IMG/VR virus record: IMGVR_UViG_3300012964_000009
Span: 1 to 15,150 of that record
Source of the DNA: a virus
Reading direction: 5' to 3' (one strand)
Length of the DNA stretch: 15,150 nucleotides
The position numbers and the translations under genes were made by a program. Numbering within the stretch: the stretch's first letter is position 1; every line of letters begins with the position of its first letter. Positions 1 through 14,072 of the stretch are shown piece by piece. The notes under the pieces are model-generated. The model saw only the letters and a program-made list of their open reading frames with translations, was not told where the DNA came from and did not search any database.

Positions 1-123
1 CGATAATATCAATACGTCCAACCTCTTGAAGCCCGACATAATTAACGCTTGATGTATCTCCCCCCAATGAAACTTCGGAAAGCTGACAAGGATTTGCAAT
101 GGGGCCCGTGTACCCACATGTAC
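1..123. repeat. Terminal direct repeat, copy 1 (identical to 15028..15150); overlap produced by linearising a circular molecule
   Basis: Read by eye: cgataatatcaatacgtccaacc...ggggcccgtgtacccacatgtac occurs at both window ends, 123/123 identical. Unit length is 15027 bp. The repeat lies inside an open reading frame. Confidence 0.95.
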
Positions 124-397
124 CGACTACTGCTGGTTCATACTTCATATACCCTGATACTGTGCTGCCGTTTCCATACCAAAGAGTATAATCGACTGTT
201 GTGCCAGTGGGGATGTCTATGGATATTCGTTGAACTGCCTCTCCCGTTGCTGTGTAATCCTGGGTAAGGTTTGTGGGATTTCCCGGGATAAGGATAAGTG
301 TGCCTCCCCCAAGAGGCTCCGCTGTTATCTCATATTCTGCTGACGCGAATGGGATAATAAGAGCTGCAATGAGGAGAACAAAAAGTATTGTTCTCAT
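1..397 (-). CDS. 5' part of a junction-spanning gene (300 aa in total): secreted or membrane protein with an N-terminal signal peptide
   Basis: The ATG at 397 overlaps the stop of the upstream gene (ATGA, 394-397). My translation is MRTILFVLLIAALIIPFASAEYEITAEPLGGGTLILIPGNPTNLTQDYTATGEAVQRISIDIPTGTTVDYTLWYGNGSTVSGYMKYEPAVVGTCGYTGPIANPCQLSEVSLGGDTSSVNYVGLQEVGRIDII. It stays open to base 1 and continues in frame at 15027. This part is not in the ORF track because it is cut by the window edge. Confidence 0.8.
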   Translation of the reverse strand, partial: MRTILFVLLIAALIIPFASAEYEITAEPLGGGTLILIPGNPTNLTQDYTATGEAVQRISIDIPTGTTVDYTLWYGNGSTVSGYMKYEPAVVGTCGYTGPIANPCQLSEVSLGGDTSSVNYVGLQEVGRIDII

Positions 398-2124
398 TTT
401 CTACCCATCCCCATTACGAGATATACAATGGTGAATACTGCAAAGAGTGGGATAAGTAATTTCATCCATCCTCTTACATCATTCATCATTGAACGATCTT
501 GGGCTGCATAACACGCATCGGTATCTTCCCCCCCCTCACACCCCGGCATAATAGTTACCACAACATCCCCATTTGCATTTGTGAGTACTGCGGTAGCTGT
601 TGCAGTTGCTCCGATGGTGATGGGCACCAACTCCATGCGGGTTGTGTCCGGGCCAAAGGATGAGGTTGTGAGGACGCGATCTCCCGATGTGTACCCGGTT
701 TTGGCTACTGTGAGGTGTATTGTGGATACGTTGGGTACTGACATTGTAACTGTACCGGCGCTGTTGGTTGTGGCGATCTGCTGTGTGCCGGCTGGCGTTG
801 TTGCTGATACGGATGCACCCTGCAAGGGTTTGTTGTTGGTAATGTCATTGACGATTACGATCAGGTTGACATTACCTAACCCGGGATCTCCCGATCCTCC
901 GCTGCCGGGCACTGCAAGAAGGTTTGTGGGCCACATGATGATCTCAAATGGCCCCGCTGCTGCTGTAACTCCTGTGCGGGTACTTGTAGTAAATCCGGTT
1001 GCATCTGCATATCCGCTTACGGTGTCCGTAGCTGCTGCGAAGATGTAATGAGATCCGTCAGCATCTGCTGTGGAGTTTGACCAAAGCCCTGTTGTATCAT
1101 CTGTAATCTGGATGTTTGCCCCATAGATTGCACCGGATGTAACTCCGTTAACTGCTGTGAACCATACACGGGATGAGCCGGATGGCGTTGGGGTAGGAGT
1201 AACTGGTGGAATTCCCCCGGATTCATTGAAGTAATTGAGAAATTTTACTGTGGAATTAATGGTATGTCCTGTTGCTGGAACATACATTGAGAATATTACA
1301 TCCGCCCCCACACTCACAACAGATTCGTCCGTGAATCCCGTTGTTCCAGTGTACACGAGGGAATTATTAGAATATATTTTTGTGAGAGATACAGATGATC
1401 CCGATTTAACAATATCTGAATTGAGCAACATTGTATTACTTATCTTCGTTAGGTTCGTTGCTGTGATAGTGTCTGTTGAAGTGGATTCATATGTGAAGTA
1501 GTTAGATCCCGCTGCATTGTACCATGCTCCTGATGTAGAATGATCCCACGTTATTTGCCTACCCCCACAATTCTGATATCCCCCTGCTGTTGGCCCTTGC
1601 TGATATCCAGTAATCTCACGATATGAAGGTATATCCGGCGTGAACGTGATATTTGGATTCATACAACCGGTGTATGTCATTGGTTCCCACGTATCGAAAT
1701 TAAGAAGAATCATCTCTGTATATGTAGAGAAGAACGTCCCATTATCAAATTGATACGTACCGGTTGCGATGGTGTTTGTTCCGAGTTTCAGCTCAAATGT
1801 TCCTGACTGGTCTGGGGCTGGGCCCGGTGCGGCAGATCCTTTTGAGAAGAACGCGTATTCGTTTGGAATCCCGATTGAATCAAAATTTAGATATACCCTC
1901 CGATTATCTCCACCCGTCACCGATGCACCAATATCCCAATTTGGTGTTCCGATGAATGGATCTTCAAGCGTGATCACTTCGGTGGATGCCTGTGCCTGGG
2001 GTGCGATAACAAGCGCAATGAGCAGAATGAACGCAAGGAATGCGACATAGTGGATCATCGCGTCGAAGCATGGGCCGAGTATGGCCTCTTTGCCATACCA
2101 TGTAGGATATTTTGGATATGTCAT
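394..2124 (-). CDS. 576-aa type I membrane surface protein; candidate virion spike (receptor-binding or fusion protein)
   Basis: The track ORF starts at a GTG (2151). The first ATG, at 2124, has AAGGAGAC 8 nt upstream and sits 1 nt after the TAA of the upstream gene. Signal or anchor: VAFLAFILLIALVIAPQAQA/STEV. Thr/Pro linker: PPVTPTPTPSGSS. Two roughly 80-aa segments resemble carboxypeptidase-regulatory (transthyretin-like) beta-sandwich domains (about 622..1170): RVWFTAVNGVTSGAIYGANIQITDDTTG... and GNVNLIVIVNDITNNKPLQGASVSATTPAGTQQIATTNSAGTVTMSV...AKTGYTS. C-terminal TM anchor: WMKLLIPLFAVFTIVYLVMGMGRK. There are 8 N-x-S/T sequons. Confidence 0.7.
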   Translation of the reverse strand: MTYPKYPTWYGKEAILGPCFDAMIHYVAFLAFILLIALVIAPQAQASTEVITLEDPFIGTPNWDIGASVTGGDNRRVYLNFDSIGIPNEYAFFSKGSAAPGPAPDQSGTFELKLGTNTIATGTYQFDNGTFFSTYTEMILLNFDTWEPMTYTGCMNPNITFTPDIPSYREITGYQQGPTAGGYQNCGGRQITWDHSTSGAWYNAAGSNYFTYESTSTDTITATNLTKISNTMLLNSDIVKSGSSVSLTKIYSNNSLVYTGTTGFTDESVVSVGADVIFSMYVPATGHTINSTVKFLNYFNESGGIPPVTPTPTPSGSSRVWFTAVNGVTSGAIYGANIQITDDTTGLWSNSTADADGSHYIFAAATDTVSGYADATGFTTSTRTGVTAAAGPFEIIMWPTNLLAVPGSGGSGDPGLGNVNLIVIVNDITNNKPLQGASVSATTPAGTQQIATTNSAGTVTMSVPNVSTIHLTVAKTGYTSGDRVLTTSSFGPDTTRMELVPITIGATATATAVLTNANGDVVVTIMPGCEGGEDTDACYAAQDRSMMNDVRGWMKLLIPLFAVFTIVYLVMGMGRK

Positions 2125-2125
2125 T

Positions 2126-2470
2126 TTAACGTCTCCTTGCCATTGCAACACCGATCAGAACTGCAATGAAAAATAACACTACTGCATTGGTATTAGCCCA
2201 TGCAATTAATGACGAGAGCCAATCACCCGGATCATCGAGGGGTGTTGTGCTCATCGGTTTCATTGAGAAAATATAAGAATCTCCATCAACGAGGGTTATT
2301 ACCGATGTGCTGTTGTAATAGCCGTACATTGTGCCATTGGGGTGATACACGATGATGTCACGCTCTGCGATGCCGCCGGGATTCGCCAGTGTGATTGTGT
2401 TGGCTTGTACCGGGAAAACTGCCAATGCGATAAGCACCAGCAATGTAAGAATAATGGTTTGTTTGTTCAT
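2126..2470 (-). CDS. 114-aa small type I membrane protein (signal peptide plus C-terminal TM anchor ending RRR)
   Basis: The ATG at 2470 is preceded by TTAGGAGTATGAT (SD). Signal: MNKQTIILTLLVLIALAVFPVQA/NT. C-terminal TM: AVVLFFIAVLIGVAMARRR. The stop lies 1 nt before the next ATG. Confidence 0.75.
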   Translation of the reverse strand: MNKQTIILTLLVLIALAVFPVQANTITLANPGGIAERDIIVYHPNGTMYGYYNSTSVITLVDGDSYIFSMKPMSTTPLDDPGDWLSSLIAWANTNAVVLFFIAVLIGVAMARRR

Positions 2471-2471
2471 A

Positions 2472-4265
2472 TCATACTCCTAATTTCTTTTCAAGTGCTG
2501 CTACTCGTGCTTCGAGTGCTGTGTTCTTTGCATCCTCTTCTTTCAGCGCTTGCACAAGATTGGCGATGATGGCGCGATCGTCAAAGGTATCTGTTGTTGT
2601 GCCTGTTGGAACAAATACAGATTCGTATTCATCCTCTTCGCTTGTTTTGCCTTTTTTTGTAATAACGTTCTTATAATATCCGTCCTGTTTTGTGGCTACT
2701 GCCTCTGGGATGATTAATTTTACATCACCAGCGATAAATCCGATTTTTGTTTGCCCGTCAGAATTGAGAGTATAAGAGGCCGGTTTTAGAGCCTTTGTTT
2801 TTGATATTGCGCTTCCATCATCAGAAAGATATTTTATATTCGATTTTACTTTGGCGTCCGATGTTGTATAGAGGACGCCGTTAGAATCTGCGTATACCGT
2901 CCCTGCCCCAAGTCCACGTATTCTTATGTCTGAATAATCATCAATTAATGCGGTTCCTGTTGTTCCACCAACCGATAGATTTCCGTTAGGGGATATCCTC
3001 ATCCGTTCTATCCCCTGAAGTGTGGTAGATGTCGGCGAGGTGTAAAATATTATATGCGTTGCTGCATTATATACTGTAGATCCGCCCCCCACGTTTAAAT
3101 ATGAGTATGGATTACTTGCTGCCGTAAAAAACATAGCTATAGACTCCTCGGAATTATTATAATGGCCATCTAAATAGTATGCATTTTTTGTCGTCATGTC
3201 CAAAACCGTACTTTGTAATCTAAACGAACCTATCACGTCAAGCGTAACCCCCCCGGGCGTTCTACCAATTCCAACCCTCCCCCCGTCGAGTTGTAAAATT
3301 ACATATGATGAAGTTTTCGTTGCGCTTGACGTGCCGTTAAGGATAAGGTCGTCGTTGGCTGCTGTGCCACCGGTGATTACCTGACCCCCCGGGAGACCGG
3401 GTTTGTAAGCATAGGATTCGTTGATCGCTGTTCCTGCTGGGCCGGGCGGGCCTTGTATTCCTTGAGATGTTATTGGTGATTCAATTTTTGATACACGGGA
3501 ATTGTCATCAAAATAAATTGTCGCTTCTCTCGCCGGTACACTGGTTGTGACAAGGTAATAGCGCATTATGAAGCGGTCGGTTGTATCCATTGGATATGCA
3601 TTGAGCAGAACGTATTCATCTATAAGACGTGTCACGCTGGTTGTGAGAGGTTGTCCTGTGAAACTGTATATCTGGTGTTCTGTGCCGTTGGTGTGGTATG
3701 CGGAGAGATTGTATGCGAGAGATGAAATCCCCGTTGATGTGCTGTCAATTTTGGCGTACGTGTACCACTTGCGATTGCCCGGGGGGAGTGCATTGATATT
3801 GGGGTCTCCTTCGGGCGTCATGAATTGGGCGATGAGTGTATAGGTTCCTGCTCCTGTGGATGTGGCGGATCGGTTGGATTCTTCGAGGTACGGGTATATC
3901 CTGCTCATCGATTGAAAAGAGGTATTCGCGGTTTCATTGGAATTGTGGAGGTAATAGACCACCGGCAATGTCATGGTCATATTTTCTGGACCCATTGGGC
4001 CTTGTGGGCCTTGTGGTCCTTGTAATGGGTTGGTGGGGCATAAGGGAGTCCATTCTGTGAGTGCGTATCGGCAGAAAAACGGTTGGCTTTCTACGGATGG
4101 GTTAATCTCTGCTGCGTGTGCAATTGGTGCAGTTAACAGAATGAATCCGAAGCCAACGCAGATCCACAGTATGATCCATGTTGCGAGTATGCATTTTTCC
4201 TGAAACGGAGTTCGTATAGGATCAGATTCAAAAACGGTATTGTCAGAAAAGATGCTAAAACTCAT
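2472..4265 (-). CDS. 597-aa membrane-anchored fibre protein: N-terminal TM, collagen-like G-X-Y runs, beta-rich shaft, C-terminal S74-type intramolecular chaperone (endosialidase-chaperone) domain
   Basis: ATG at 4265. TM or signal anchor: ILATWIILWICVGFGFILLTAPIAHA. Collagen-like runs: GPQGPQGPMGPE (3984..4019) and GIQGPPGPAGTA (3426..3461). Tail-fibre-like motif: GGRVGIGRTPGGVTLDVIGSF. The C-terminus (aa 469-597, 2475..2861) reads SDAKVKSNIKYLSDDGSAISKTKALKPASYTLNSDGQTKIGFIAGDVKLIIPEAV...IIANLVQALKEEDAKNTALEARVAALEKKL. This matches the S-D-x-x-x-K...GFIAQ-V...PE-V...coiled-coil pattern of phage tail-fibre autoproteolytic chaperone domains. Confidence 0.8.
   Translation of the reverse strand: MSFSIFSDNTVFESDPIRTPFQEKCILATWIILWICVGFGFILLTAPIAHAAEINPSVESQPFFCRYALTEWTPLCPTNPLQGPQGPQGPMGPENMTMTLPVVYYLHNSNETANTSFQSMSRIYPYLEESNRSATSTGAGTYTLIAQFMTPEGDPNINALPPGNRKWYTYAKIDSTSTGISSLAYNLSAYHTNGTEHQIYSFTGQPLTTSVTRLIDEYVLLNAYPMDTTDRFIMRYYLVTTSVPAREATIYFDDNSRVSKIESPITSQGIQGPPGPAGTAINESYAYKPGLPGGQVITGGTAANDDLILNGTSSATKTSSYVILQLDGGRVGIGRTPGGVTLDVIGSFRLQSTVLDMTTKNAYYLDGHYNNSEESIAMFFTAASNPYSYLNVGGGSTVYNAATHIIFYTSPTSTTLQGIERMRISPNGNLSVGGTTGTALIDDYSDIRIRGLGAGTVYADSNGVLYTTSDAKVKSNIKYLSDDGSAISKTKALKPASYTLNSDGQTKIGFIAGDVKLIIPEAVATKQDGYYKNVITKKGKTSEEDEYESVFVPTGTTTDTFDDRAIIANLVQALKEEDAKNTALEARVAALEKKLGV
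3987..4022. repeat. Imperfect 4 x 9-bp tandem repeat (tggacccat tgggccttg tgggccttg tggtccttg) encoding the first collagen-like run
   Basis: Read directly. Units 2-4 (3996..4022) differ by one base; unit 1 is more diverged. Confidence 0.8.
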
Positions 4266-4279
4266 ATAACCCTTTCTTG

Positions 4280-4308
4280 GTACCGGAAGATAATTAATCT
4301 ACCGGTAC
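4280..4308 (-). other. Stem-loop (7-bp stem GTACCGG/CCGGTAC, 15-nt AT-rich loop) in the 67-nt spacer between the 94-aa gene and the fibre gene
   Basis: gtaccgg (4280-4286) pairs with ccggtac (4302-4308). No T-tract follows on the minus strand, so it is not a classical terminator. Confidence 0.45.
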
Positions 4309-4332
4309 TTGTGAGAGGGTATTCAGACTTCG

Positions 4333-4617
4333 TTACATCCTTAATTTCGTCAGAATTGAATCGAAAAGATCCGGGAAGAACTTTGCCACTGCCATGACGA
4401 TAAAAAGTGGAATCAAGCCCAGGACAAGCGCTGTGAGGCTCGGGATGAGTGCAGTGATACCATCAACAAGTGGCCCCACTGTGCTGTTGATATCAAAGGT
4501 GACTGCCATCGCGGGTGCTGCGGTTACAACAGCTGCCGCGCCTGCGGTGATCGATAAGCGGTGCGCATGGATCTTGTCCATGAGTGAATCTTTCTTGGTT
4601 ACAACCTCTTCGGTCAT
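4333..4617 (-). CDS. 94-aa small double-hydrophobic protein; candidate major virion (capsid or membrane) protein, possibly N-terminally processed
   Basis: The track start at 4623 is TTG; the first ATG is at 4617 (MTEEVVTKKDSLMDKIHAHRLS...). An Ala-rich hydrophobic stretch ITAGAAAVVTAAPAMA has an AxA-like site (AMA/VT). It is followed by the strongly hydrophobic GITALIPSLTALVLGLIPLFIVMAVA and a short basic tail KFFPDLFDSILTKLRM. This is the first gene after the longest non-coding region, with a TATA-like box 22 nt upstream and no SD. Confidence 0.65.
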   Translation of the reverse strand: MTEEVVTKKDSLMDKIHAHRLSITAGAAAVVTAAPAMAVTFDINSTVGPLVDGITALIPSLTALVLGLIPLFIVMAVAKFFPDLFDSILTKLRM

Positions 4618-4639
4618 AATCAAACATCATCGCGTGCTC

Positions 4640-4647
4640 TATTTAAT
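4640..4647 (-). promoter_or_regulatory. TATA-like box (minus strand ATTAAATA), putative promoter of the structural (late) unit; leaderless geometry
   Basis: Exactly 22 nt separate the octamer from the ATG at 4617, and there is no SD in between. The spacing is the same as at 8483..8490. Confidence 0.45.
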
Positions 4648-5075
4648 GATTGCGCCTTGTATCTTTGTTCTTTACTTGTGTATATTTTGTGTTGGGATAT
4701 GTGCGCGCTATACAAAGACCAAAATTTATCCCGAAGTACTCAAAGCGGGATGGTAAAGGTGGAAGTTGGGTTATTGGAGTATTTCCATTAGAAATGGCGG
4801 TATGGAATGACCACAGGTATTCGCGTTTCCAGTTCTATGTACTGGGTACGGCGCGGTTGGGGTTTTGGGGAAGAGGGAAGCCGAGAGCGCTGGGAGTTTG
4901 ATGAAAAAGTCCTGGGGGATTTGGTATTGTTTGGTTGGGGCCGCACTATCTCAATATGGTTTGGCCGCTGAATTTGCTAATATAGTATGTGCAATTTCTT
5001 CTTGCTGCGTTTTACACAACACAATATAGTGCGTTGAACTGCTTTTGATCATCCACCATTGCAGATAACTGTGAT

Positions 5076-5080
5076 AAAAA
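5076..5080 (-). terminator. T5 tract (minus strand CTCTTTTTATC), putative oligo-T terminator of the early unit
   Basis: It lies 36 nt downstream of the stop at 5116 and is followed by about 450 nt without credible ORFs. Confidence 0.3.
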
Positions 5081-5115
5081 GAGGGATTCGTTTCTGCAAG
5101 TTGCGCATTGGGGAT

Positions 5116-5325
5116 TCATGGCTTTCTGGATTTCAGATAATCACAATACATTGGATAGAAAACAGATGCTATAATTACCCCAAGGAGTAGTGCAAATATT
5201 GGAAGTAATGATAACATAAGGCGCCACAACGGATCCAACATTATTACATAATCCGGAGTCAATGCCGATCCACAGTATGTCATGTTTGGTAAACACTCGC
5301 ACATCATAACACTCCATAGTGCCAT
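5116..5325 (-). CDS. 69-aa Cys-containing small membrane protein, hypothetical
   Basis: ATG at 5325. One TM (LMLSLLPIFALLLGVIIASVFY) and 5 Cys. No clear SD. It overlaps a possible 32-aa ORF (5304..5402) in another frame. Confidence 0.5.
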   Translation of the reverse strand: MALWSVMMCECLPNMTYCGSALTPDYVIMLDPLWRLMLSLLPIFALLLGVIIASVFYPMYCDYLKSRKP

Positions 5326-5398
5326 GCCATGTTGATGATGATCAGAAAGGCGAGCATTGCATTACCTGTGCATGGGTGGCAAAGGATTTGGGTGGGGG

Positions 5399-5533
5399 TC
5401 ATTCGCACCGCTTCCATTTTTCGTTTATCATTTCGGCGATTTTGTCATATTCTGATTCTGGGATTTCGAACCAGCTGCAATCAGATCCGGAAGGAAAGTC
5501 ACCTTCTAACTTTAATCCGATTTTAAAAATCAT
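5399..5533 (-). CDS. 44-aa small protein, hypothetical (below the ORF-track cut-off)
   Basis: My translation: MIFKIGLKLEGDFPSGSDCSWFEIPESEYDKIAEMINEKWKRCE. The ATG at 5533 is preceded by ACGGAGGCACCGAG (GGAGG, 7-nt spacing) and overlaps the end of the upstream gene. Confidence 0.5.
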   Translation of the reverse strand: MIFKIGLKLEGDFPSGSDCSWFEIPESEYDKIAEMINEKWKRCE

Positions 5534-6245
5534 CTCGGTGCCTCCGTGGGCTTGGGGTGCTGGTGCTCCGGAGGGATTCTATCGTTGTCTTTAATTGATT
5601 TCCATCGATCTCAAAATACGAGCATCCGTCGCATTTGCGTTCTCCGTTTCTTTGTCCAATACATCCACCTTCTGCTGAAATCTTATCGTCATAAAATGCA
5701 CAGGTTGTTAACGAATCTTCGATTTCTTTTAGCACGCCCTCGCGGGCTTGGGCGATAATGGCGGCGTCGTGCTTTGGTGTTGTGATGATGTTTGAGCATT
5801 TGGGGCAGGTATGTTCCGTTGTTTCCGGTGCTGCTTGGGATGGGATTTTTGCATTACGCCCGATTATATTATATGGTGCGGCGGGGGATGGGCGGGAACG
5901 GGTGTACTTACCGTGCCGTATTCCTGCAAGGAGCACTTGAATTTTAATTTCCAGTTCCTTGAGATCGACTGCTTCTTTCTCGATATTGATAAGTTCTGCA
6001 TAAATCGCATTGCCATCAAGGTCCTGCTGTGGCTGCTGTTGTGGATATGGGATGTGATTTAATCCCAGATCGCCATCGTCAATAGTTTCTGTTGCTTTCG
6101 GACATTTTCCATGATTGCAGATCCAGAAACAATCCCCCATAATCTTATCGCATTTGATCCATGCAACTCCATCGCCTTTGATTACAACAGATGCATCTTT
6201 GCAATGTTCCATCCCTTTGTGCTGCTGTGGCTGTGGGGGGTTCAT
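5523..6245 (-). CDS. 240-aa cysteine-rich protein (11 Cys, CxxC pairs), paralogue of the 174-aa protein; putative zinc-binding, function unknown
   Basis: The ATG at 6245 overlaps the upstream stop as ATGA. N-terminus: MNPPQPQQ; internal PYPQQQPQQ. Motifs RSRPSPAAP, HTCPKCS, AQAREGVLKEIE, KCDGCSY and ESLRSTS are shared, in the same order, with 6433..6957. Confidence 0.7.
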   Translation of the reverse strand: MNPPQPQQHKGMEHCKDASVVIKGDGVAWIKCDKIMGDCFWICNHGKCPKATETIDDGDLGLNHIPYPQQQPQQDLDGNAIYAELINIEKEAVDLKELEIKIQVLLAGIRHGKYTRSRPSPAAPYNIIGRNAKIPSQAAPETTEHTCPKCSNIITTPKHDAAIIAQAREGVLKEIEDSLTTCAFYDDKISAEGGCIGQRNGERKCDGCSYFEIDGNQLKTTIESLRSTSTPSPRRHRDDF

Positions 6246-6436
6246 CGCCGATTCTCCTCACAAAACTTATTCCAAAGATCGTCTATCTTCTTTTGCTCCA
6301 CGTCGCACTTTTTGCAATACTCATCGAACAAAACATCACACGCCTTATCGTGCTTCGCTTGGGCTTCGTGGAGTTTATCATACTGTTCTTGTGTGAAATT
6401 TATTCCGTGTATTGAACACGGCCTGTCTTTACTCAT
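6242..6436 (-). CDS. 64-aa Cys-containing small protein, hypothetical
   Basis: ATGA overlaps at both ends (6433-6436 and 6242-6245). Sequence: MSKDRPCSIHGINFTQEQYDKLHEAQAKHDKACDVLFDEYCKKCDVEQKK... Confidence 0.6.
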   Translation of the reverse strand: MSKDRPCSIHGINFTQEQYDKLHEAQAKHDKACDVLFDEYCKKCDVEQKKIDDLWNKFCEENRR

Positions 6437-6957
6437 CTCTCTACCTCCTTGGTGCTTTGGGTGCCTGTGCGGAGGGATTCAAGATATTTCTCTGGATTTG
6501 CCTGACATTCGCATAAGATATCAAGAATTTGTGATCTGGTTTTTCCTATTGTCTGCCGGTTCAATTCAACTACAAGTTCCTCGCGGGCTTGGGCGGCTGC
6601 TTCTTGGGTTGTTGTAAATATTCTACACGTTGCTCTACAAGATCGATTTGCGGTTTTGCTTGGACACGGATTGCAACAATCTGGCTCCGGTGAGGCGGGG
6701 GATGGGCGGGTGTCATTGTGTTGATAGATACATTCCTCACATGGTGGCCGGGGTTTGATGGAGGAGGATGGGCGGGACCGAATGCTTTTCTGGTGCTTGC
6801 ATCCAGTCACTTTTACAACTTTCTGAAACCGTTTCAAGTCGGATGTGTTGTTTATGGCATCTTCTGGAACAGGACATGTTCCCTGCCCGTCGTGTTCACA
6901 ATCTTCACAACAGAACCATTCATGCGGCTGCTGTGGTTGCTGTGGGGTGGGGGTCAT
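6433..6957 (-). CDS. 174-aa cysteine-rich protein (14 Cys), paralogue of the 240-aa protein; function unknown
   Basis: ATG at 6957 (ATGA overlap). Sequence features: MTPTPQQPQQPHEWFCCEDCEHDGQGTC..., RSRPSSS, TRPSPASP, PPCEECIY, DCCNPC, AAQAREELVVELN, ESLRTGT. Confidence 0.7.
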   Translation of the reverse strand: MTPTPQQPQQPHEWFCCEDCEHDGQGTCPVPEDAINNTSDLKRFQKVVKVTGCKHQKSIRSRPSSSIKPRPPCEECIYQHNDTRPSPASPEPDCCNPCPSKTANRSCRATCRIFTTTQEAAAQAREELVVELNRQTIGKTRSQILDILCECQANPEKYLESLRTGTQSTKEVER

Positions 6958-7163
6958 AGGGCTTCACCTGCTTTTTTGATGAATGATTTACAACCAACCG
7001 CTCCAATAAACGCACCCATCCAATCGTGAATAGGTTCTGCTGCTCTGAAACACGGTGCAAAACAATGCCTTGAATTAAAGAATCCCGCCTTCTTACACCA
7101 AACACAATCCATACAATTTGTCCCTTCTGTGGGGCATTGCGCAGAACCTTCATTTGGCGACAT
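6954..7163 (-). CDS. 69-aa cysteine-rich small protein (7 Cys), hypothetical
   Basis: The track start at 7193 lies inside the upstream gene. The ATG at 7163 shares one base with the upstream TAA (TAATG). Sequence: MSPNEGSAQCPTEGTNCMDCVWCKKAGFFNSRHCFAPCF... Confidence 0.55.
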   Translation of the reverse strand: MSPNEGSAQCPTEGTNCMDCVWCKKAGFFNSRHCFAPCFRAAEPIHDWMGAFIGAVGCKSFIKKAGEAL

Positions 7164-7663
7164 TATGCACGCTCCTCGGTCCAGATAGAGCACTCATTAA
7201 ATTGGGATTTAAAAAGATCCGCATTTTCTCCATGATAGAATAGCGCCGATGGGAACGTTGCTCTATTTGTTGCCATTCCGGTTTTTCCATCAATGAAATG
7301 AATTCTCTGCTTTGGAAATGCTACAAGATCCGTGTAAACCATAAGTACCCCCCATGCCTCCGTTTCCGGGGCACATTTCCATAATACAATATATTCTTCC
7401 GTATTTTTTTGATAGACAGAATCGCGCAATTTTTCAAACCACTTTTTTACCCCATGTCCATACGGAGGATTGAGGAATACTGACTTCCCCCAAATTGATG
7501 TTAATCCATCGGTTTTCCCAGGTAGAGCCGGATCATGGAAATGCCCCAAAACTGCACCAGCTCGCATTAAGATCCATGGCGGAGTATACCATTCGCAGGA
7601 TTTTGATTTTGAATAAAATTCTTCTTTCGGCTTTTGCGACAAAGAGATATTCGGCGAAGTCAT
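7163..7663 (-). CDS. DNA N6-adenine methyltransferase, phage Dam-like family (small, no target-recognition partner seen)
   Basis: CEWYTPPWIL (W-x-T-P motif near the N-terminus), ...DGLTSIWGKSVFLNPPYGHGVKKWFEKL with catalytic NPPY at 7460..7471 (aat cct ccg tat on the minus strand). 166 aa, a typical size for the phage-encoded Dam family. Confidence 0.8.
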   Translation of the reverse strand: MTSPNISLSQKPKEEFYSKSKSCEWYTPPWILMRAGAVLGHFHDPALPGKTDGLTSIWGKSVFLNPPYGHGVKKWFEKLRDSVYQKNTEEYIVLWKCAPETEAWGVLMVYTDLVAFPKQRIHFIDGKTGMATNRATFPSALFYHGENADLFKSQFNECSIWTEERA

Positions 7664-8013
7664 TCGTTAATCACCGTCGCCTTTCTGACACATCCCTTTG
7701 GGCGTTTCTCCTGCTCCTTGAGCATCCAAAGGCAATCACCCGGTTCTGGATCAAAGTCGTCGGGGCAATTGAATTCCCCAATGAATTCATACCGCATCCA
7801 ACAGTGTTTCACAGAGTCTATCGTTGAAATAATTGGAACATTTTCTTTATCGTCAAAGGCATCAACTTCCTCGTCGTATTCTTTTCCGAATTGTTCCTTT
7901 GCTTCTTCGAGCGTAAGGTGTGCTCCGATGATCACATACACATCGCCAGTTAGCCTTACAAGTTCTGGCTTCATCGGTTTCCGCTTCGCAGAATCATTGT
8001 TCTCGGAAGTCAT
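7660..8013 (-). CDS. 117-aa acidic protein, hypothetical
   Basis: ATG at 8013 with ATGA overlaps at both ends. No motif recognised. Confidence 0.6.
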   Translation of the reverse strand: MTSENNDSAKRKPMKPELVRLTGDVYVIIGAHLTLEEAKEQFGKEYDEEVDAFDDKENVPIISTIDSVKHCWMRYEFIGEFNCPDDFDPEPGDCLWMLKEQEKRPKGCVRKATVINE

Positions 8014-8192
8014 GGGAGATCGCCCCGCTCGTGCTGTGGCACCTTGGGAACCGGGGGGTAAGTCCTGGTGCGTGGGTCGAATTCAAGCGTGTGGGTGGCG
8101 GTGAATCGTGGCGCTGCTGTGGGGAGTGGGTCGGTGTTGATGGGATGGAGTTTGTCGGCTTCGCAGATTTCCGTGTGTTCGGCTTCGATCAT
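8010..8192 (-). CDS. 60-aa Pro-rich protein, hypothetical
   Basis: The ATG at 8192 directly follows the upstream TAA. CAGGAAGGTGG lies upstream (SD-like). Confidence 0.5.
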   Translation of the reverse strand: MIEAEHTEICEADKLHPINTDPLPTAAPRFTATHTLEFDPRTRTYPPVPKVPQHERGDLP

Positions 8193-8339
8193 TTATGCCA
8201 CCTTCCTGTATGTGATGGTCATTCCATCCGGTGATACTTCCCTGCGGTAGTATCCTGTTGTTCCCAACGGTGCCTGTAACATCTGTTCGTTCCCTACTCT
8301 CCGTGATTTATAGAGAGTCTCATTCAAGAGTTTTGACAT
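8193..8339 (-). CDS. 48-aa basic protein, hypothetical
   Basis: The track start at 8387 is replaced by the ATG at 8339 (MSKLLNETLYKSRRVG...), which is preceded by ACCGGAGGAATAAAACA (GGAGG). Confidence 0.5.
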   Translation of the reverse strand: MSKLLNETLYKSRRVGNEQMLQAPLGTTGYYRREVSPDGMTITYRKVA

Positions 8340-8343
8340 TGTT

Positions 8344-8460
8344 TTATTCCTCCGGTTTGTAGTGCTGGATAATCCATACAATATCATCCTGTTTTTTTCT
8401 CATTTCTTGACAGTGTTTTAATTCCTCTGCTTCAATCTGTTTCCGGGTCTTTCTTACCAT
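8344..8460 (-). CDS. 38-aa highly charged protein, hypothetical; first gene of the early unit (below the ORF-track cut-off)
   Basis: My translation: MVRKTRKQIEAEELKHCQEMRKKQDDIVWIIQHYKPEE. The ATG at 8460 lies 22 nt downstream of the TATA-like box, with no SD (leaderless geometry). Confidence 0.4.
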   Translation of the reverse strand: MVRKTRKQIEAEELKHCQEMRKKQDDIVWIIQHYKPEE

Positions 8461-8463
8461 GTA

Positions 8464-8477
8464 GAATCATATGATTC
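8464..8477. promoter_or_regulatory. Perfect 14-bp palindrome GAATCATATGATTC between the TATA-like box and the ATG; candidate operator
   Basis: Read directly and self-complementary. It sits within catatgaatcatatg (two CATATG copies). Confidence 0.5.
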
Positions 8478-8482
8478 ATATG

Positions 8483-8490
8483 TATTTATA
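8483..8490 (-). promoter_or_regulatory. TATA-like box (minus strand TATAAATA) overlapping the rep stop codon; putative promoter of the early unit
   Basis: 22 nt separate it from the ATG at 8460, the same spacing as the 4640..4647 box. Confidence 0.45.
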
Positions 8491-9655
8491 GGTATCCATC
8501 TTGCGCCAATTTGAGGCGCTGGCGTAGGGTGAGGGTTGGAGTGGTTGGCTCCTGATTTATGATTGTTGGCTTTGGTTTTCTTCCCCACTCGCAGAAATAT
8601 AGGGGGGGTGGATCGGTAATGCGTACTTTGCCTCTTGGATCTAACCAAAAATCATTATCTATCCAATCCGGGATATACTGACGATACCAGATTACCCTAT
8701 CAATTTCTACTTCCTCATTTTCTGGCGTGAGTTCGACTGTTTTTAATCGTGTTTCCAACCATACCATATCTGTTTCGTGGTCATCCTTCAAGCACATCAT
8801 ATGAGAGATGGCTTTTGATGCACCATACAGGCGGAATTTGTTATCCCATAAATGGGCATTAAAAATGAGTGTGCCTATTGACCATCCATCAAGAAGGAAT
8901 CCTGGGCGAAGGTATTTGATAAGATAGCTTTTGAGATTCTTTATATCGTCCTTATTTTTTGAGAAGTCAAGTCCGTATGTGTGGGAACCTGTACCATATT
9001 TGCGAGACCAGAGATCGCGTAATTTATCCTCCATCCCTCTACCCCGTGAGTCCTTTACATTGTTTGAAACATCAGCAAATACTGCTAGGTGATAATGCGC
9101 ATATCCTGCGTCTCCTGTTGGGTGTGGTTCAACTACCCAAAAGTAATCAGGTGCTCCGCAATATTTCTTAATCAGTTTGAGGAGTTTCACCCGGGATATG
9201 TTGAGCTGGTGCCATGCGTCCTGTACAGTTACTGTGTCCGGATGATAAGCTGTAAGGGTGATCATTGTCACGGGCCTATCACTGTGCGACTGGAACCAAA
9301 AATCGAGACGTTCTAGTTTGTCAGAAAGTTCTCTTCTGCGTACCGGTCCCCATCGGTTATTGTACGACATAGGGAGATTGAGGACCTTCCCTTTCTTCGT
9401 GTCATATCCTTTTACCATGAATCCCTTTTGCTCGCATTGATCCAGATATTTCACAAAATCCTGACATACGAAATCGTTCTTGTGCCTGGAATCGGTACCC
9501 GGTTGCTCTAGAAGCCGGATGAGAGCGTCCTTTGCTAGATCACTGGGTTGTGTGGATGTTATGCTTATGACTTGCCTAGACGGAGAAGGTTTCCCGCTTC
9601 GCGGGTTCTGACGCTGCGCTGTGCTCTTGCGATGAGCCCCATACGGGAGCGGCAA
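8486..9655 (-). CDS. rep: HUH-superfamily rolling-circle replication initiator (Rep); start codon uncertain
   Basis: Motif I: VTMITLT (aa 129-135). Motif II: EPHPTGDAGYAHYHLAVF (H187-x-H189 followed by hydrophobics; 9089..9097). Motif III: LKSYLIKYLRPG with twin tyrosines Y244/Y248 (8912..8926), comparable to YVAKY of phiX174 protein A. The track start at 9655 is TTG. The first in-frame ATG is codon 80 (9418), preceded by AAAGGGA. Confidence 0.85.
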   Translation of the reverse strand: MPLPYGAHRKSTAQRQNPRSGKPSPSRQVISITSTQPSDLAKDALIRLLEQPGTDSRHKNDFVCQDFVKYLDQCEQKGFMVKGYDTKKGKVLNLPMSYNNRWGPVRRRELSDKLERLDFWFQSHSDRPVTMITLTAYHPDTVTVQDAWHQLNISRVKLLKLIKKYCGAPDYFWVVEPHPTGDAGYAHYHLAVFADVSNNVKDSRGRGMEDKLRDLWSRKYGTGSHTYGLDFSKNKDDIKNLKSYLIKYLRPGFLLDGWSIGTLIFNAHLWDNKFRLYGASKAISHMMCLKDDHETDMVWLETRLKTVELTPENEEVEIDRVIWYRQYIPDWIDNDFWLDPRGKVRITDPPPLYFCEWGRKPKPTIINQEPTTPTLTLRQRLKLAQDGYL

Positions 9656-9745
9656 GGCTCCCTTCGGGGCCGAGGTCGGTAGGAGCGGGATTGGTACTGT
9701 GACGTAAACCGCCGGTAGGTTTATGGAGGTCGTTAAATCGCCTCC
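9593..9745. promoter_or_regulatory. Cluster of four stem-loops plus flanking GGAGCGG direct repeats; candidate rolling-circle origin and/or structured rep leader
   Basis: H1: cccgc-ttc-gcggg (9593-9605). H2: ggc(t)ccc-ttc-ggggcc (9656-9671). H3: taaacc-gccggta-ggttta (9705-9723). H4: ggagg(t)cg-ttaaat-cgcctcc (9725-9745). GGAGCGG occurs at 9646-9652 and 9682-9688, bracketing H2. Confidence 0.45.
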
Positions 9746-9758
9746 GAAAAGAAAAAGG

Positions 9759-9766
9759 TATATAAA
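9759..9766 (-). promoter_or_regulatory. Consensus archaeal-type TATA box (minus strand TTTATATA) upstream of rep
   Basis: Plus strand tatataaa. It is followed on the minus strand by a T-rich stretch and the hairpin cluster. It lies about 100 nt upstream of the first possible rep start. Confidence 0.5.
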
Positions 9767-9910
9767 TTGGCGGGTGCTATACTGTATTGTTTCCTGTTGT
9801 TCACTTGTTCTTTTTGGCTCTCCCCTGCAAGGGAGGCCTTAACTTTTTCCAAGAGGATCACCTGTCTGTTTTTTCATGGTTGGGTAACTGTGTATTCTGT
9901 TTGACGTACT

Positions 9911-9915
9911 AAAAA
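9911..9915 (-). terminator. T5 tract in TATTTTTAG (minus strand), putative terminator of the RHH unit
   Basis: It lies 30 nt after the stop at 9945. The same 9-mer TATTTTTAG recurs at 10890-10898, after the late unit. Confidence 0.3.
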
Positions 9916-9944
9916 TAGTTTGGGGAGGTGATGAGAGGCGATTG

Positions 9945-10139
9945 TTAGAGGGTGTGTGGGTCATTGCAGAATTTTATTTCTTCGGTTGTTTTCTCTGGCA
10001 CCTCAACCCATTCGGGTTTAAGCATATATCCTTTCCCATCCCATCCACATATCATCGGTAGTCTATCGCCACCCGGTGAGATCGTGCAAGGATTTTTCTG
10101 ATCCTTACAACGTATGCAGAGGAATTGTTTTTGTGGCAT
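9945..10139 (-). CDS. 64-aa Cys-containing protein (CxxC...C...C), possible zinc ribbon, hypothetical
   Basis: ATG at 10139. Sequence: MPQKQFLCIRCKDQKNPCTISPGGDRLPMICGWDG... Confidence 0.55.
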   Translation of the reverse strand: MPQKQFLCIRCKDQKNPCTISPGGDRLPMICGWDGKGYMLKPEWVEVPEKTTEEIKFCNDPHTL

Positions 10140-10141
10140 AA

Positions 10142-10609
10142 TTATACCTGGAACTTTCGGAATGAACCGTCCTTGAAGAAATACTCATCCGGTTTTCCGG
10201 ATGGAACGACGCGGGCCCGGATCCTCATTGTAGGGATAAAGCAGTTATCCCAAACCGGGATTTTGTCTTTGGGCATTTCAATCCCGATGTCCTCCAAGAA
10301 TGTAACGACCCGGGAGCGGAAAGGATCGGACGGTCCTTTACCCCAGCTCAAAGTCTCAATCTGGAAGTGGTGGAATACTTCAATACCAGTATTTAACTCT
10401 CTCCATGTGAGGGCCGCATTGGTCTTTTTTACGGGTTCTTTTCCGGCTGCTTTGTCCTCTTTTGACTGTGCGGCTTTCATCTGTTTTGATGTGGCTTCGA
10501 TGAGTTCGAAGACATATTCTTCCTGGGGATCGAGTTTTCCTTTACCTGCATTTTTTTCTCCGAGCGGAGAGAAGTTGCCTGCGATTTTTGTACCGGGATT
10601 TCCGATCAT
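10142..10609 (-). CDS. 155-aa protein with a Lys-rich, probably disordered N-terminal third; hypothetical (nucleic-acid binding is only a guess from context)
   Basis: The ATG at 10609 overlaps the RHH stop (ATGA). No motif recognised. Confidence 0.6.
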   Translation of the reverse strand: MIGNPGTKIAGNFSPLGEKNAGKGKLDPQEEYVFELIEATSKQMKAAQSKEDKAAGKEPVKKTNAALTWRELNTGIEVFHHFQIETLSWGKGPSDPFRSRVVTFLEDIGIEMPKDKIPVWDNCFIPTMRIRARVVPSGKPDEYFFKDGSFRKFQV

Positions 10610-10752
10610 GAAAAACCCCCGTGTGCGTTAGTGAATTCGACGGCAATGCGAAGGGCATCTCTCATGTTTTCAATCCCCTTTCTTTTCATGAAGTCTTTAA
10701 GCAGGAGTGAATCTCCTACATAGATTTGTGCTGATGTGGTCTGCTTATCCAT
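10606..10752 (-). CDS. 48-aa ribbon-helix-helix (CopG/Arc-like) transcriptional regulator (below the ORF-track cut-off)
   Basis: My translation: MDKQTTSAQIYVGDSLLLKDFMKRKGIENMRDALRIAVEFTNAHGGFS. The pattern is a beta strand (AQIYVG), helix 1 (DSLLLKDFMKRKG), a turn, then helix 2 (MRDALRIAVEF). It is the first gene after a 153-nt intergenic region. Confidence 0.6.
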   Translation of the reverse strand: MDKQTTSAQIYVGDSLLLKDFMKRKGIENMRDALRIAVEFTNAHGGFS

Positions 10753-10796
10753 TTGTGTTTCCTGCTGTGTATTACAGCGATAATCACGTTGATTGT

Positions 10797-10806
10797 TAAA
10801 ATATAT
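10797..10806 (-). promoter_or_regulatory. AT-rich TATA-like element (minus strand CATATATTTTAA) upstream of the RHH gene, flanked by TAATCAC direct repeats
   Basis: It lies about 44 nt upstream of the ATG at 10752. TAATCAC occurs at 10781-10787 and 10820-10826. Confidence 0.35.
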
Positions 10807-10891
10807 GAATATTGTGGTTTAATCACAAAGAGAGGATTTTTGCAATGCCGCAAAGAATCGCAGAAACAAAACTCGAGATTGCGATATAACT

Positions 10892-10896
10892 AAAAA
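10892..10896 (-). terminator. T5 tract in TATTTTTAG (minus strand), putative terminator of the structural unit
   Basis: It starts about 10 nt after the stop at 10906. TTTTGTTTC follows further downstream. Confidence 0.3.
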
Positions 10897-10905
10897 TAAG
10901 TTCTA

Positions 10906-11703
10906 TCATTCCAATTGCCACCAGTGCGGCTCTATTAAGTCGTGAGTATTGACAAGGACTTTTATATCCTTGATTTGTGTGTCTGATGGAACAACGAAGG
11001 GAATATAGCCTGACCACATATTAGATTTGCCGCAACGGAGCCGTTGTTTTTCGTAAGCCACTGGGAGTCCTTCGCTGTTATATTCTCGACTATATCCGTA
11101 TGGCTGGATTGTTTCGACGTGTCGATAATCCCATATCTCATCAAAGTCGTGTAGTCTGATGGATGGGAGCAACTCTTCGGTTCTTTGATAGATGTTGCCT
11201 TTTATGTCGAGAGTGAAATATTGCGGTTGGAATCCCCACATGCGAGAAGAATTATCGTCGGTGTATGATGCTGCATAGATGAATAGGAATTTCTTACCCT
11301 CTCCGGGATTCGCCACAAAATATTGTCCCCATGATACAGACCACCACTCCACCATTGATAATTCTTTATGGCCCCATACTGTGATGTGAGCGGTTACGTC
11401 CTTATAGCCGGATACATTGACTTTCTCAAATGTCAGCCATTGCCCTTGCTTCATACCATTATATTTTGCAAGGAACTGGGCTTCGGATAATGTGGGTTCT
11501 GGTGTGGGCGTTGGTGTTGCGATCGTTTCTATGATTATTTCGCTGGTTGGCTGTGGTGTTGGTATCGGAGTATCGACAAGGTTTTTATAAGTATTCTTCG
11601 CCGATGTGACACACCCCCCAGTCACTACCATTAATATGACGATCATCAATAATCCAAGTACCATCATTAATTGGAAAACGGTGTGATATTTTTCTTCAAT
11701 CAT
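10906..11703 (-). CDS. 265-aa exported protein: N-terminal TM with a lipobox-like TGGC, Thr/Pro linker, beta-rich domain (possibly DUF4352-like)
   Basis: ATG at 11703. VFQLMMVLGLLMIVILMVVTGGC; PIPTPQPTSEIIIETIATPTPTPEPT; then KQGQWLTFEKVNVSGYKDVTAHITVWG...GKKFLFIYAASYTDDNSS. Confidence 0.6.
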   Translation of the reverse strand: MIEEKYHTVFQLMMVLGLLMIVILMVVTGGCVTSAKNTYKNLVDTPIPTPQPTSEIIIETIATPTPTPEPTLSEAQFLAKYNGMKQGQWLTFEKVNVSGYKDVTAHITVWGHKELSMVEWWSVSWGQYFVANPGEGKKFLFIYAASYTDDNSSRMWGFQPQYFTLDIKGNIYQRTEELLPSIRLHDFDEIWDYRHVETIQPYGYSREYNSEGLPVAYEKQRLRCGKSNMWSGYIPFVVPSDTQIKDIKVLVNTHDLIEPHWWQLE

Positions 11704-12844: not shown

Positions 12845-13254
12845 TAGAACACCATCTCTTCACCTTCTGGTTTTATCTTGTCGATTACTTTTGATGTGGT
12901 GATGATATCGGAGAGAACTTCAAAGAGGCCGTCCATTTCCTTCTGGAATGTCTTTTCCTCTCCTGTGCATGTGATTGAACTTTCAAAACGGGGATTATAC
13001 ATTTCCCTGATCTTACCTGTCCTTTCAAATGCATCCTGCATCATGGGCTGGATATCCCTATTGTAATCATCCGCCTTTCCTGCGTATGCGACTTTGGGAA
13101 CGTAGGTTTTGAGGTATGCATAGATTTTATGGAGTGTCTTGCGATCGTTCTCGTAGGTGTCACCTTCTTTTCCGTAGTGTGCGAGCTCAAAGAAGATGAG
13201 AGCGGGGATGCCGGTATATCCCATTCCGGCGGAGACTCTTCTATTGGCTACCAT
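12844..13254 (-). CDS. 136-aa soluble protein, hypothetical
   Basis: The track start at 13293 is TTG. The ATG at 13254 (MVANRRVSAGMGY...) is preceded by GTAGGAGAAAAT (AGGAG, 5-6 nt spacing). Confidence 0.6.
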   Translation of the reverse strand: MVANRRVSAGMGYTGIPALIFFELAHYGKEGDTYENDRKTLHKIYAYLKTYVPKVAYAGKADDYNRDIQPMMQDAFERTGKIREMYNPRFESSITCTGEEKTFQKEMDGLFEVLSDIITTSKVIDKIKPEGEEMVF

Positions 13255-14067: not shown

Positions 14068-14072
14068 GAGTA

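Follow-up and report, generated by a model that had tools for sequence, protein, structure and literature searches.

A short hydrophobic membrane-protein precursor as candidate main virion protein of a temperate archaeal virus

A constrained gene for a 94-residue protein

The window analyzed here is the whole of a 15,150-nucleotide (nt) stretch of viral DNA (IMG/VR record IMGVR_UViG_3300012964_000009, positions 1 to 15,150). Because its first 123 nt recur exactly at 15028–15150 as an assembly overlap, the window represents a complete circular genome of 15,027 bp. The subject of this report is a minus-strand gene at 4333–4617 (ATG at 4617, stop codon at 4335–4333) for a protein of 94 amino acids (aa), which is probably the precursor of the main virion protein, small, hydrophobic and helical, of a temperate and non-lytic archaeal virus whose host was probably a methanogen. 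A first-pass annotation, made from the letters alone, had proposed a major virion protein with N-terminal processing at this place, an interpretation that is partly supported by the analysis that follows.

The 94-aa product quoted in that annotation is reproduced exactly by the open reading frame (ORF) running from 4617 to 4333. An in-frame TTG at 4623 would prepend the residues MI, but homologs begin with MTE or MSE, so that the ATG at 4617 was taken as the start and initiation at the TTG is unlikely. A 120-aa ORF on the opposite strand (4394–4756) was dismissed as an antisense shadow of the gene. Between the window and L002, one of the related loci that are designated here by L numbers, synonymous sites of the gene are saturated (pS, 0.72–0.76), while the predicted mature part shows a non-synonymous divergence (pN) of 0.12, as against 0.54 for the leader; the pattern is similar in other pairs, and in an alignment of five close homologs the first ~38 residues vary and the last 56 are nearly invariant. 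The ORF is a genuine gene under constraint. An identical protein (P0001) is present on 15-kb contigs of other public assemblies, and a profile search over 1.84 billion representatives recovered 142 proteins at E<=1e-3, nearly all of them 85–130 aa long and of the same layout, a family of ~142 clusters at 50% identity. Pattern scans built from the close-homolog alignment (A1) gave no matches over genomes and IMG/VR, and neither tblastn searches with the 94-aa protein and the element's ATPase nor megablast of the whole window matched phage or archaeal-virus records. No description of the family or of the group of elements that carries it was found in available databases and papers.

A predicted signal peptide, a hydrophobic mature peptide and a conserved sequon

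The first part of the protein had been read as a leader ending in an AxA-type site, and the family bears this out. Residues 1–38 (4504–4617, minus strand) form a predicted Sec signal peptide, with a charged n-region, an h-region rich in Ala, Val and Thr and an AMA cleavage motif (A36-M37-A38, followed by V39). Throughout the family the leader is variable and the mature part is constrained in length, and small residues occupy positions −3 (A, S or V) and −1 (A, G or S) in 66/66 members for which a site could be placed. Family leaders have a median length of 39 aa, and the segment that precedes their hydrophobic region carries a net charge of +2; in the 94-aa protein, the leader's hydrophobic stretch is weak and rich in Ala, Gly and Thr, with a Kyte-Doolittle (KD19) maximum of 1.7. 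In an AlphaFold2 (AF2) model of the 94-aa protein, the predicted local distance difference test score (pLDDT) falls below 50 for residues 28–38, at the end of the leader. All this suggests a Sec signal peptide whose removal by signal peptidase I would yield a single-pass peptide of type I with its N terminus outside and its C terminus inside the cell.

The predicted mature protein of 56 aa (4336–4503, minus strand; 6.0 kDa, isoelectric point 4.6) consists of an acidic amphipathic N-terminal segment with D42 and D52, a hydrophobic stretch of ~30 residues and an amphipathic C-terminal helix that bears K91 and R93. The acidic N terminus, hydrophobic core (residues ~50–81) and weakly basic tail that had been described for these 56 residues are thus all present; in the tail, K79, K91 and R93 stand against D84 and D86, giving a net charge of about +1. 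The family follows the same plan. Its mature parts have predicted lengths of 52–57 aa (median, 55), with a net charge of −2 over the first 16 mature residues and of +1.2 over the last 14 (on average 2.0 basic and 0.85 acidic residues), and usually end in K-(L/M/I). Three conserved prolines, spaced 10–11 residues apart, punctuate the hydrophobic stretch (P49, P59 and P70 in the window), and the AF2 model places helices at residues 43–80 and 82–93 with pLDDT values of 85–90.

Six residues past the predicted cleavage site lies an N-X-S/T sequon, N44-S45-T46 (4480–4488, minus strand), a candidate N-glycosylation site. A sequon is present near the mature N terminus in 126 of 140 family members (90%), as compared with 20% of shuffled windows and the 6% predicted from sequon density elsewhere, and it is kept while the residues around it vary (DINST, DLNAT, INDS, LNGT, NIT). 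Such persistence matches the expectation for an N-glycosylation site on an exposed N terminus, and the protein is probably glycosylated.

Promoter, hairpin and oligo-T signals around the gene

Upstream of the gene, at 4636–4655 on the minus strand, lies a promoter composed of a BRE (B recognition element)-like GCGCAA, a 3-nt spacer, a TATA box, TTAAATAG (4646–4639), and AGC. The TATA-like box had been placed 22 nt upstream of the start codon, and its last base is indeed at −22. The reported absence of a Shine-Dalgarno (SD) sequence likewise stands, the sole match upstream of the gene being a spurious 4-mer; most internal cistrons of the genome carry SD sequences of the AGGAG, AGGAGGT or GGTGAT/GGTGA type. 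In the window, L002, L003 and L009, the motif GCGCAA-N3/4-TTAAATAGAGC stands equally far from the ATG; its place is taken by CAAAAA...TT(T/A)ATA(T/A)A in more distant relatives, and a TATA-like box is found 24–32 nt upstream of the start in ~14/16 non-redundant relatives having upstream sequence. Given the spacing between TATA box and start in archaea, the transcription start site should lie at or adjoin the ATG, so that the mRNA would be leaderless or nearly so. The gene follows the longest non-coding region of the genome, as had been stated: 905 nt without a called gene (4618–5522), with positive GC skew, separate the replication and regulatory block from the structural block, and the next largest gap measures 723 nt.

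In the 67-nt spacer past the gene, a nested stem-loop occupies 4269–4320 (minus strand), and the stem-loop previously noted at 4280–4308 is its inner stem (4308–4280). Its folding energy is −24.5 kcal/mol (z = −3.3), a value that was reached by 0/200 shuffled sequences, and equivalent hairpins are present in L002, L009, L010 and L100. In the window, L002 and L009, the SD-like AAAGGG just ahead of the next start codon falls in the 3′ arm of the outer stem, so that the folded hairpin would hide the next gene's ribosome-binding site as well. A run of T residues is an archaeal intrinsic terminator signal, and among 17 relatives nine have an oligo-T run (T5–T7) at most ~45 nt past the stop codon. 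The other eight have predicted hairpins, with z scores that range from −3.1 to −4.8 for L002, L009, L100 and the window and are weaker in L109 and L119 (~−2.5), L139 (−1.9) and L125 (−1.0). The conserved sequon, the BRE/TATA signals without SD that are shared across relatives and the hairpin or oligo-T run that regularly follows the gene go beyond what the first-pass annotation had seen.

Its view that the layout is typical of a highly expressed structural gene is strengthened by the conservation of promoter and terminator in the relatives and by the records of two well-known viruses. As in M13, where 1522 is the end of gene VIII and gene III begins at 1579, a terminator or hairpin follows the gene and precedes that of an adsorption protein. 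As in SSV1, transcription would be near-leaderless and a terminator would lie right past the putative coat gene; in SSV1, transcripts T1/T2 start at 12559, the VP1 ORF spans 12567–13001 and the T1 termination site lies at 13047–13059.

A putative motor ATPase linked to the small-protein gene

The most conserved gene of the element (11696–12844, minus strand) encodes a 382-aa soluble ATPase of the FtsK-HerA superfamily, with the Walker A motif GVTSAGKT and the Walker B motif HIDES. The assignment to this superfamily of motors rests on an AF2 model (pLDDT 83.5; predicted template modeling score, 0.81) that matches HerA, the STIV2 B204 genome-packaging NTPase, FtsK, TcpA and EssC, each with probability 1.0. 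By sequence, searches of Pfam and the PDB gave nothing except TrwB_AAD_bind at E 0.17, and hhalign comparisons with HRPV-1 VP8, M13 pI and STIV2 B204 aligned the Walker A motif only or nothing. The ATPase family comprises 162 clusters at 90% identity, mostly on contigs of 12–19 kb, and has no Pfam domain.

The core module is conserved in the relatives L009 and L010 (12.5–14.7 kb), in which the ATPase is 54–64% identical. Where at least 8 kb of sequence was available upstream of the ATPase gene, exactly one gene of the 94-aa family was found on the same strand, 5–7.3 kb upstream of it, in 13/13 loci. In the distant relatives L119 (915–2500) and L139 (17–1022), whose ATPases are 39–42% identical, the small-protein gene stands immediately downstream of the ATPase gene, so the linkage between the two survives rearrangement. 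Both integrated copies with tyrosine integrases and episomal twins exist (L013 versus L014/L015). Together, the small-protein family and the ATPase mark a group of 12–18-kb circular temperate elements from anoxic freshwater-type metagenomes. IMG/VR holds only two contigs of this group, one of which, IMGVR_UViG_3300037067_016798 (L078/L079, 33.5 kb), carries two copies of the ATPase and small-protein genes ~18 kb apart and represents a tandem dimer or concatemer, or else a head-to-tail assembly of two related elements.

A 5.6-kb mini-element (L003 5596–11155, also L004 and L005) is integrated in a 133-kb archaeal contig, with prenyltransferase genes on both sides. Apart from an integrase and small ORFs, its content is limited to a weak Rep-like gene and a 90-aa family member under the same TTAAATAGAGC promoter; ATPase and spike genes are missing. 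This element may represent a satellite with a coat subunit of its own or else a provirus in decay.

The host is probably an archaeon, and likely a methanogen, to judge from the TATA/BRE type of promoter, the host flanks and a contig binned to Methanoregula. The flanks include DUF2124 (L013) and, in L003, Ku/LigD and a cluster named 'coenzyme F390 synthetase'. In species genomes, short contigs of the element type occur in three bins of metagenome-assembled genomes: Dehalococcoidia, Gammaproteobacteria and Methanoregula. The contigs binned to Dehalococcoidia and Gammaproteobacteria (L016 and L017, GTDB), one protein of which is named accordingly in NCBI, consist entirely of element sequence, so that these two bins are probably errors; contaminated bins of this kind could mislead host assignment.

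Other genes of the element

The 94-aa gene had been placed at the head of a structural block, and it does open a run of six consecutive genes for proteins with a signal peptide or transmembrane (TM) segment, as compared with 0/9 genes upstream. In order, this run encodes the 94-aa protein, a 597-aa fibre, a 114-aa protein, a 576-aa spike, a 300-aa protein and a 150-aa protein; beyond it lie three soluble proteins, the 382-aa ATPase and a lipoprotein-like 253-aa protein. Half of the genome encodes only soluble proteins, namely an HUH rolling-circle replication initiator (PF23343 REP_ORF2-G2P; 8486–9655, minus strand), a Dam-like methyltransferase and Cys-rich and Q/P-rich proteins.

The large downstream gene that had been called a fibre gene (2472–4265, minus strand) fits that name: its 597-aa product, predicted to be secreted, has a signal peptide, collagen-like G-X-Y repeats, a C-terminal Peptidase_S74 intramolecular chaperone and matches to tail-fibre PHROGs. 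The collagen-like runs read GPQGPQGPMGP and GIQGPPGPAG, and the S74 domain, typical of phage tail fibres, is found here in an apparently archaeal element. The gene is not conserved, since L002, L009 and L010 carry other proteins at its position, and it looks like an exchangeable host-recognition cassette. A 30-nt direct repeat, 87% identical between its copies, encodes the segment ILWICVGFGF of the fibre signal peptide/TM region at 4144–4173 and recurs at 5250–5279, out of frame, in the 905-nt non-coding region inside an uncalled 69-aa ORF (5116–5325); it may be the scar of a fibre-module exchange.

The remaining genes of the run, all on the minus strand, encode a conserved 114-aa protein that combines a signal peptide with a C-terminal TM anchor (2126–2470), a 576-aa spike-like glycoprotein with an N-terminal signal or TM segment, a CarboxypepD_reg domain, a C-terminal TM anchor and 8 sequons (394–2124), a 300-aa core protein with a signal peptide, a beta-rich ectodomain and C-terminal hydrophobic helices, and a 150-aa core protein with a C-terminal TM anchor (14073–14525). 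The 300-aa gene spans the circle junction, with the N-terminal part encoded at 1–397 and the C-terminal part at 14522–15027. For the other core proteins, no significant match emerged from scans of Pfam, PHROG and NCBIfam.

Four further minus-strand genes deserve mention. The Cys-rich 240-aa and 174-aa proteins (5523–6245 and 6433–6957) have similar Pro/Gln-rich N termini (MNPPQPQQ... and MTPTPQQPQQP...), which are encoded by GCTGCTGTGG-type DNA repeats at 6035–6054, 6221–6240 and 6927–6946; they have no family match and are possible paralogous zinc-binding regulators. The 253/265-aa protein past the ATPase (10906–11703), which is conserved in L009 and L010, has an N-terminal TM segment ending in a lipobox-like VVTGGC and followed by a Thr/Pro-rich linker, and may serve as an anchor of the archaeal lipoprotein type. 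A basic 155-aa protein without a family match (isoelectric point 8.9) is encoded at 10142–10609, between the structural block and the gene for Rep. This protein is a candidate single-stranded DNA (ssDNA)-binding protein, a role that would bear on ssDNA packaging.

Discussion

The combination of a small, very hydrophobic helical protein with a putatively cleavable leader, an insulated strong promoter, linkage to ATPase, spike and fibre genes and a small, temperate rolling-circle replicon is a signature of coat subunits that wait in the membrane for assembly, and the element appears non-lytic because no lysis genes were found. The closest likeness in layout and logic seems to be pVIII of the inoviruses, with a looser one to VP1 of SSV1. 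Like M13 G8P, the 94-aa product would start as a small precursor whose Sec signal peptide is cleaved at an AxA-type site, giving a mature protein of ~50–56 aa with an acidic N terminus, a hydrophobic middle and a basic C-terminal end, and it is predicted to pass through an N-out/C-in membrane intermediate. The genome, like those of inoviruses, also encodes a G2P-type HUH Rep and a FtsK-HerA ATPase. Inovirus coats are recognized as short mature proteins (30–90 aa) that have a single TM helix and often start out with a cleavable signal peptide (PMC6813254), and the predicted leader of 38 aa and mature part of 56 aa fall within this description. A hydrophobic alpha-helical major capsid protein (MCP) together with an FtsK-like ATPase is the hallmark of filamentous-phage morphogenesis in the realm Efunaviria (PMC13595969), of which archaeal members are predicted only (PMC13595969; PMC6813254).

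A number of observations speak against a virion protein of this kind, or against taking the likeness to pVIII literally, and the claim that the product is the major virion component is circumstantial. The 94-aa protein found zero matches in Pfam, NCBIfam and PDB sequence searches, and Foldseek of its model against BFVD and the PDB returned only noise, as expected of a helix with pLDDT 69. Cleavage sites were predicted from a simple rule and from conservation. In PHROG scans, which covered 60 family members, 3/60 matched phrog_1646 weakly (best E 2.3e-4), the Ff pVIII family that M13 pVIII itself matches at 2.7e-26, and 1/60 matched phrog_1109, the CTX Cep 'core-encoded pilin', at 0.018. A 31-sequence pVIII profile aligned by hhalign with the signal peptides only (probability 7%), and against this profile the mature part of the family scored 11.0, the level of the reversed control; outside the signal peptide there is thus no significant sequence or profile similarity to pVIII. 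Unlike pVIII, the family has a tail of only about +1, poor for the neutralization of DNA, in place of the clearly basic, ssDNA-contacting C terminus of inovirus coats (the family mean of +1.2 falls short of this), as well as a conserved N-glycosylation sequon, and at its three conserved prolines the helix, which is straight in Ff coats, would be kinked. The candidate for a pI-like partner has the FtsK-HerA fold and the invariant linkage, but only its Walker A motif aligns with M13 pI, it does not match Pfam Zot and, unlike pI, it is without a TM segment. Unlike an inovirus, the element has a 15-kb genome with many membrane glycoproteins and probably an archaeal host, and this rich set of glycoproteins weighs against a literal pVIII-type DNA sheath. 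An enveloped particle of pleomorphic or spindle-like shape would be just as compatible with the weak tail, the prolines, the TM-less ATPase and the many membrane glycoproteins.

The first-pass annotation had considered both the two-helix architecture of spindle-virus capsid proteins and the pVIII-like layout compatible with the protein. If the leader is cleaved, a single TM stretch of ~30 residues remains, so the pVIII-like layout fits better and the two-helix hairpin stands only if the leader is retained. We consider it quite unlikely that the leader stays on and that the 94-aa protein is a two-helix hairpin, with both termini inside and a glycosylated loop outside, in a spindle-shaped virion. 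SSV1 VP1/VP3 and His1 VP21 are likewise small, very hydrophobic alpha-helical proteins of non-lytic archaeal viruses, and they also carry sequons on their exposed part. In SSV1 VP3 and His1 VP21, two hydrophobic stretches surround a sequon-bearing segment, as they do here; the gene for the 73-aa His1 MCP precedes a block of signal-peptide and C-terminal-anchor proteins and has intergenic gaps on both sides; and the pattern L-[IV]-P-x10-[IV]-P-A-[IV]-[IV] in the TM helix locally resembles the proline-punctuated C-terminal helix of SSV1 VP1/VP3 (L-V-P-x10-V-P-A-V-V), a resemblance that is inseparable from hydrophobic bias. SSV1 VP1 is likewise made as a precursor, of 144 aa, which loses its N-terminal part. 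Unlike the 65-aa propeptide of SSV1 VP1, however, the leader of the 94-aa protein resembles a standard substrate of signal peptidase I: its hydrophobic stretch is weak and variable and the small residues at −3 and −1 are conserved, as is typical of signal peptides, whereas in spindle-virus MCPs both TM helices remain after maturation. The SSV PHROGs 11172 and 5402 were matched by 0/60 members, and hhalign against a fusellovirus profile gave 16.4, the level of the reversed-sequence controls (14.2–15.8). These profile-profile negatives, like those against pVIII, are weak because the positive control, fusellovirus profile against His1 VP21, failed too; His1 VP21 itself matches phrog_11172 only at E 0.029. 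The comparisons that had been suggested with SSV1 VP1, His1 VP21, pleolipovirus VP3 and inovirus pVIII detected no homology.

The 94-aa product could also be a membrane protein of a virion whose main structural element is something else, either a pleolipovirus-like vesicle or an icosahedral particle with an internal membrane of the PRD1/PM2/STIV type, which we regard as unlikely. The gene order, which runs from the small membrane protein through a spike with signal peptide and C-terminal anchor and further membrane proteins to the NTPase, parallels VP3-VP4-ORF5/6/7-VP8 of HRPV-1, a 7–17-kb type of element in which the gene for a small membrane protein likewise lies upstream of the spike gene and an HUH Rep and an NTPase are encoded; variants with HUH Rep and integrase are known in pleomorphic archaeal viruses, some of them of methanogens (PMC10919331), and the ATPase resembles the packaging NTPase B204 of STIV2. 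HRPV-1 VP3, however, has 132 aa and a different hydrophobic pattern, and its hhalign score with the family was at the level of shuffled sequences; similarity between the ATPase and HRPV-1 VP8 (BLASTP, hhalign) was limited to the P-loop, both comparisons having the limited sensitivity of a single-sequence target. Pleolipoviruses have as their hallmark the V-shaped VP4/VP5 fusogen (PMC10919331; PMC13595969), and the 585-aa spike has no sequence match to PDB chains, the solved VP4/VP5 structures (6QGL included) among them. The icosahedral jelly-roll scenario is rated low because a cytosolic, beta-rich core protein suited to it is missing, the TM-less core proteins being 77–149 aa long and helical in appearance. 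Even in such a virion, the expression design would indicate a major component. A long leader that ends in an AxA site, ahead of a very hydrophobic mature peptide (here of ~55 aa), is also a trait of conjugative pilins, so that the element might instead be a plasmid or integrative element building a pilus or DNA-transfer apparatus, with the 94-aa protein as a pilin precursor of the VirB2/TraA/Ced-Ted type and the ATPase as a coupling or VirB4-like motor. The match of the ATPase fold to the coupling protein TcpA and to EssC, the weak TrwB_AAD_bind hit and an HUH protein that could serve as relaxase agree with this, but the module contains no VirB4-, VirB6- or VirB8-like genes and no type IV secretion system families (Pfam, NCBIfam and PHROG scans), a tail-fibre protein with an S74 chaperone is present, the mature peptide has one hydrophobic helix rather than two, and both the size class of 12–18 kb and the occurrence of episomal alongside integrated twins are typical of temperate viruses; we find this very unlikely. 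Finally, a protein this small and hydrophobic might be a non-structural membrane protein that acts in holin-like egress, in superinfection exclusion or as an assembly scaffold. A confident match to a holin or transporter fragment would have favored this, and neither that nor a defence-family match was seen for the protein and 60 family members in Pfam, PHROGs and NCBIfam. The strict linkage to the ATPase and spike block, the putatively cleaved leader with the conserved exposed sequon, the monocistronic design for high expression and the retention of a copy even in the 5.6-kb mini-element of L003 make a non-structural role highly improbable.

A main virion protein, processed from the 94-aa precursor and held in the membrane, is accordingly what we favor, and the following sequence of events is proposed from gene context and family statistics. 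The strong BRE/TATA promoter directly upstream would yield a leaderless mRNA, transcription of which would be stopped or attenuated right past the gene by the hairpin (in the window) or the oligo-T terminator (in relatives). The hairpin would, in addition, mask the ribosome-binding site of the next gene, and through attenuation and masking the small protein should be made in large excess over fibre and spike. The 38-residue leader would direct the protein to the Sec translocon, and signal peptidase I would cut past A-M-A. The product would be a 56-residue type I membrane protein, with its acidic N terminus outside and carrying an N-glycan at N44, a long, proline-kinked hydrophobic helix in the membrane and a short, amphipathic, weakly basic C-terminal helix at the cytoplasmic face. 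The mature protein would build up in the cell membrane until the genome, made by the HUH Rep, leaves through it, probably driven by the FtsK-HerA ATPase, and would then be collected as the main coat or envelope subunit, with membrane-anchored spikes and the collagen-like fibre joining as minor components. The resulting particle may be a filament, a spindle or a pleomorphic vesicle.

A related arrangement has been described in the IME1 elements of Dehalococcoides, which were proposed to be budding or filamentous viruses (bioRxiv 10.64898/2026.09.15.751708). These integrative and episomal elements also combine a pI-like/FtsK-HerA ATPase with several short signal-peptide or TM proteins, but they have Chloroflexota hosts, measure 21–28 kb and replicate by a primase-helicase, and their candidate coat protein structurally resembles SSV1 VP1. 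For the elements studied here, a bolder version of the main proposal is that the window is a complete genome of a widespread but so far overlooked lineage of methanogen viruses, that these assemble in the manner of filamentous phages, a glycosylated analogue of pVIII being stripped from the membrane onto DNA that is extruded by way of the TM-less FtsK-HerA ATPase, and that this lineage is the first well-populated archaeal counterpart of the inovirus module, very distantly related to it or convergent. We put this joint proposal forward as tentative and rather unlikely.

Small hydrophobic helical coat proteins define both the filamentous phages and the archaeal spindle viruses. Because such coats are too short and too biased in composition for routine homology searches, whole groups of viruses stay invisible. 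The protein described here would belong to a familiar kind, the processed coats, small and hydrophobic, of viruses that extrude or bud, while its family and the group of elements that carry it appear to be new. If it is indeed a coat protein, it would provide a searchable marker for a new lineage of methanogen viruses and a concrete test of inovirus-like extrusion in the Archaea, which has hitherto been predicted from only four sequences. It would also be an example of a viral coat subunit that bears a conserved glycosylation site right at its processed N terminus.

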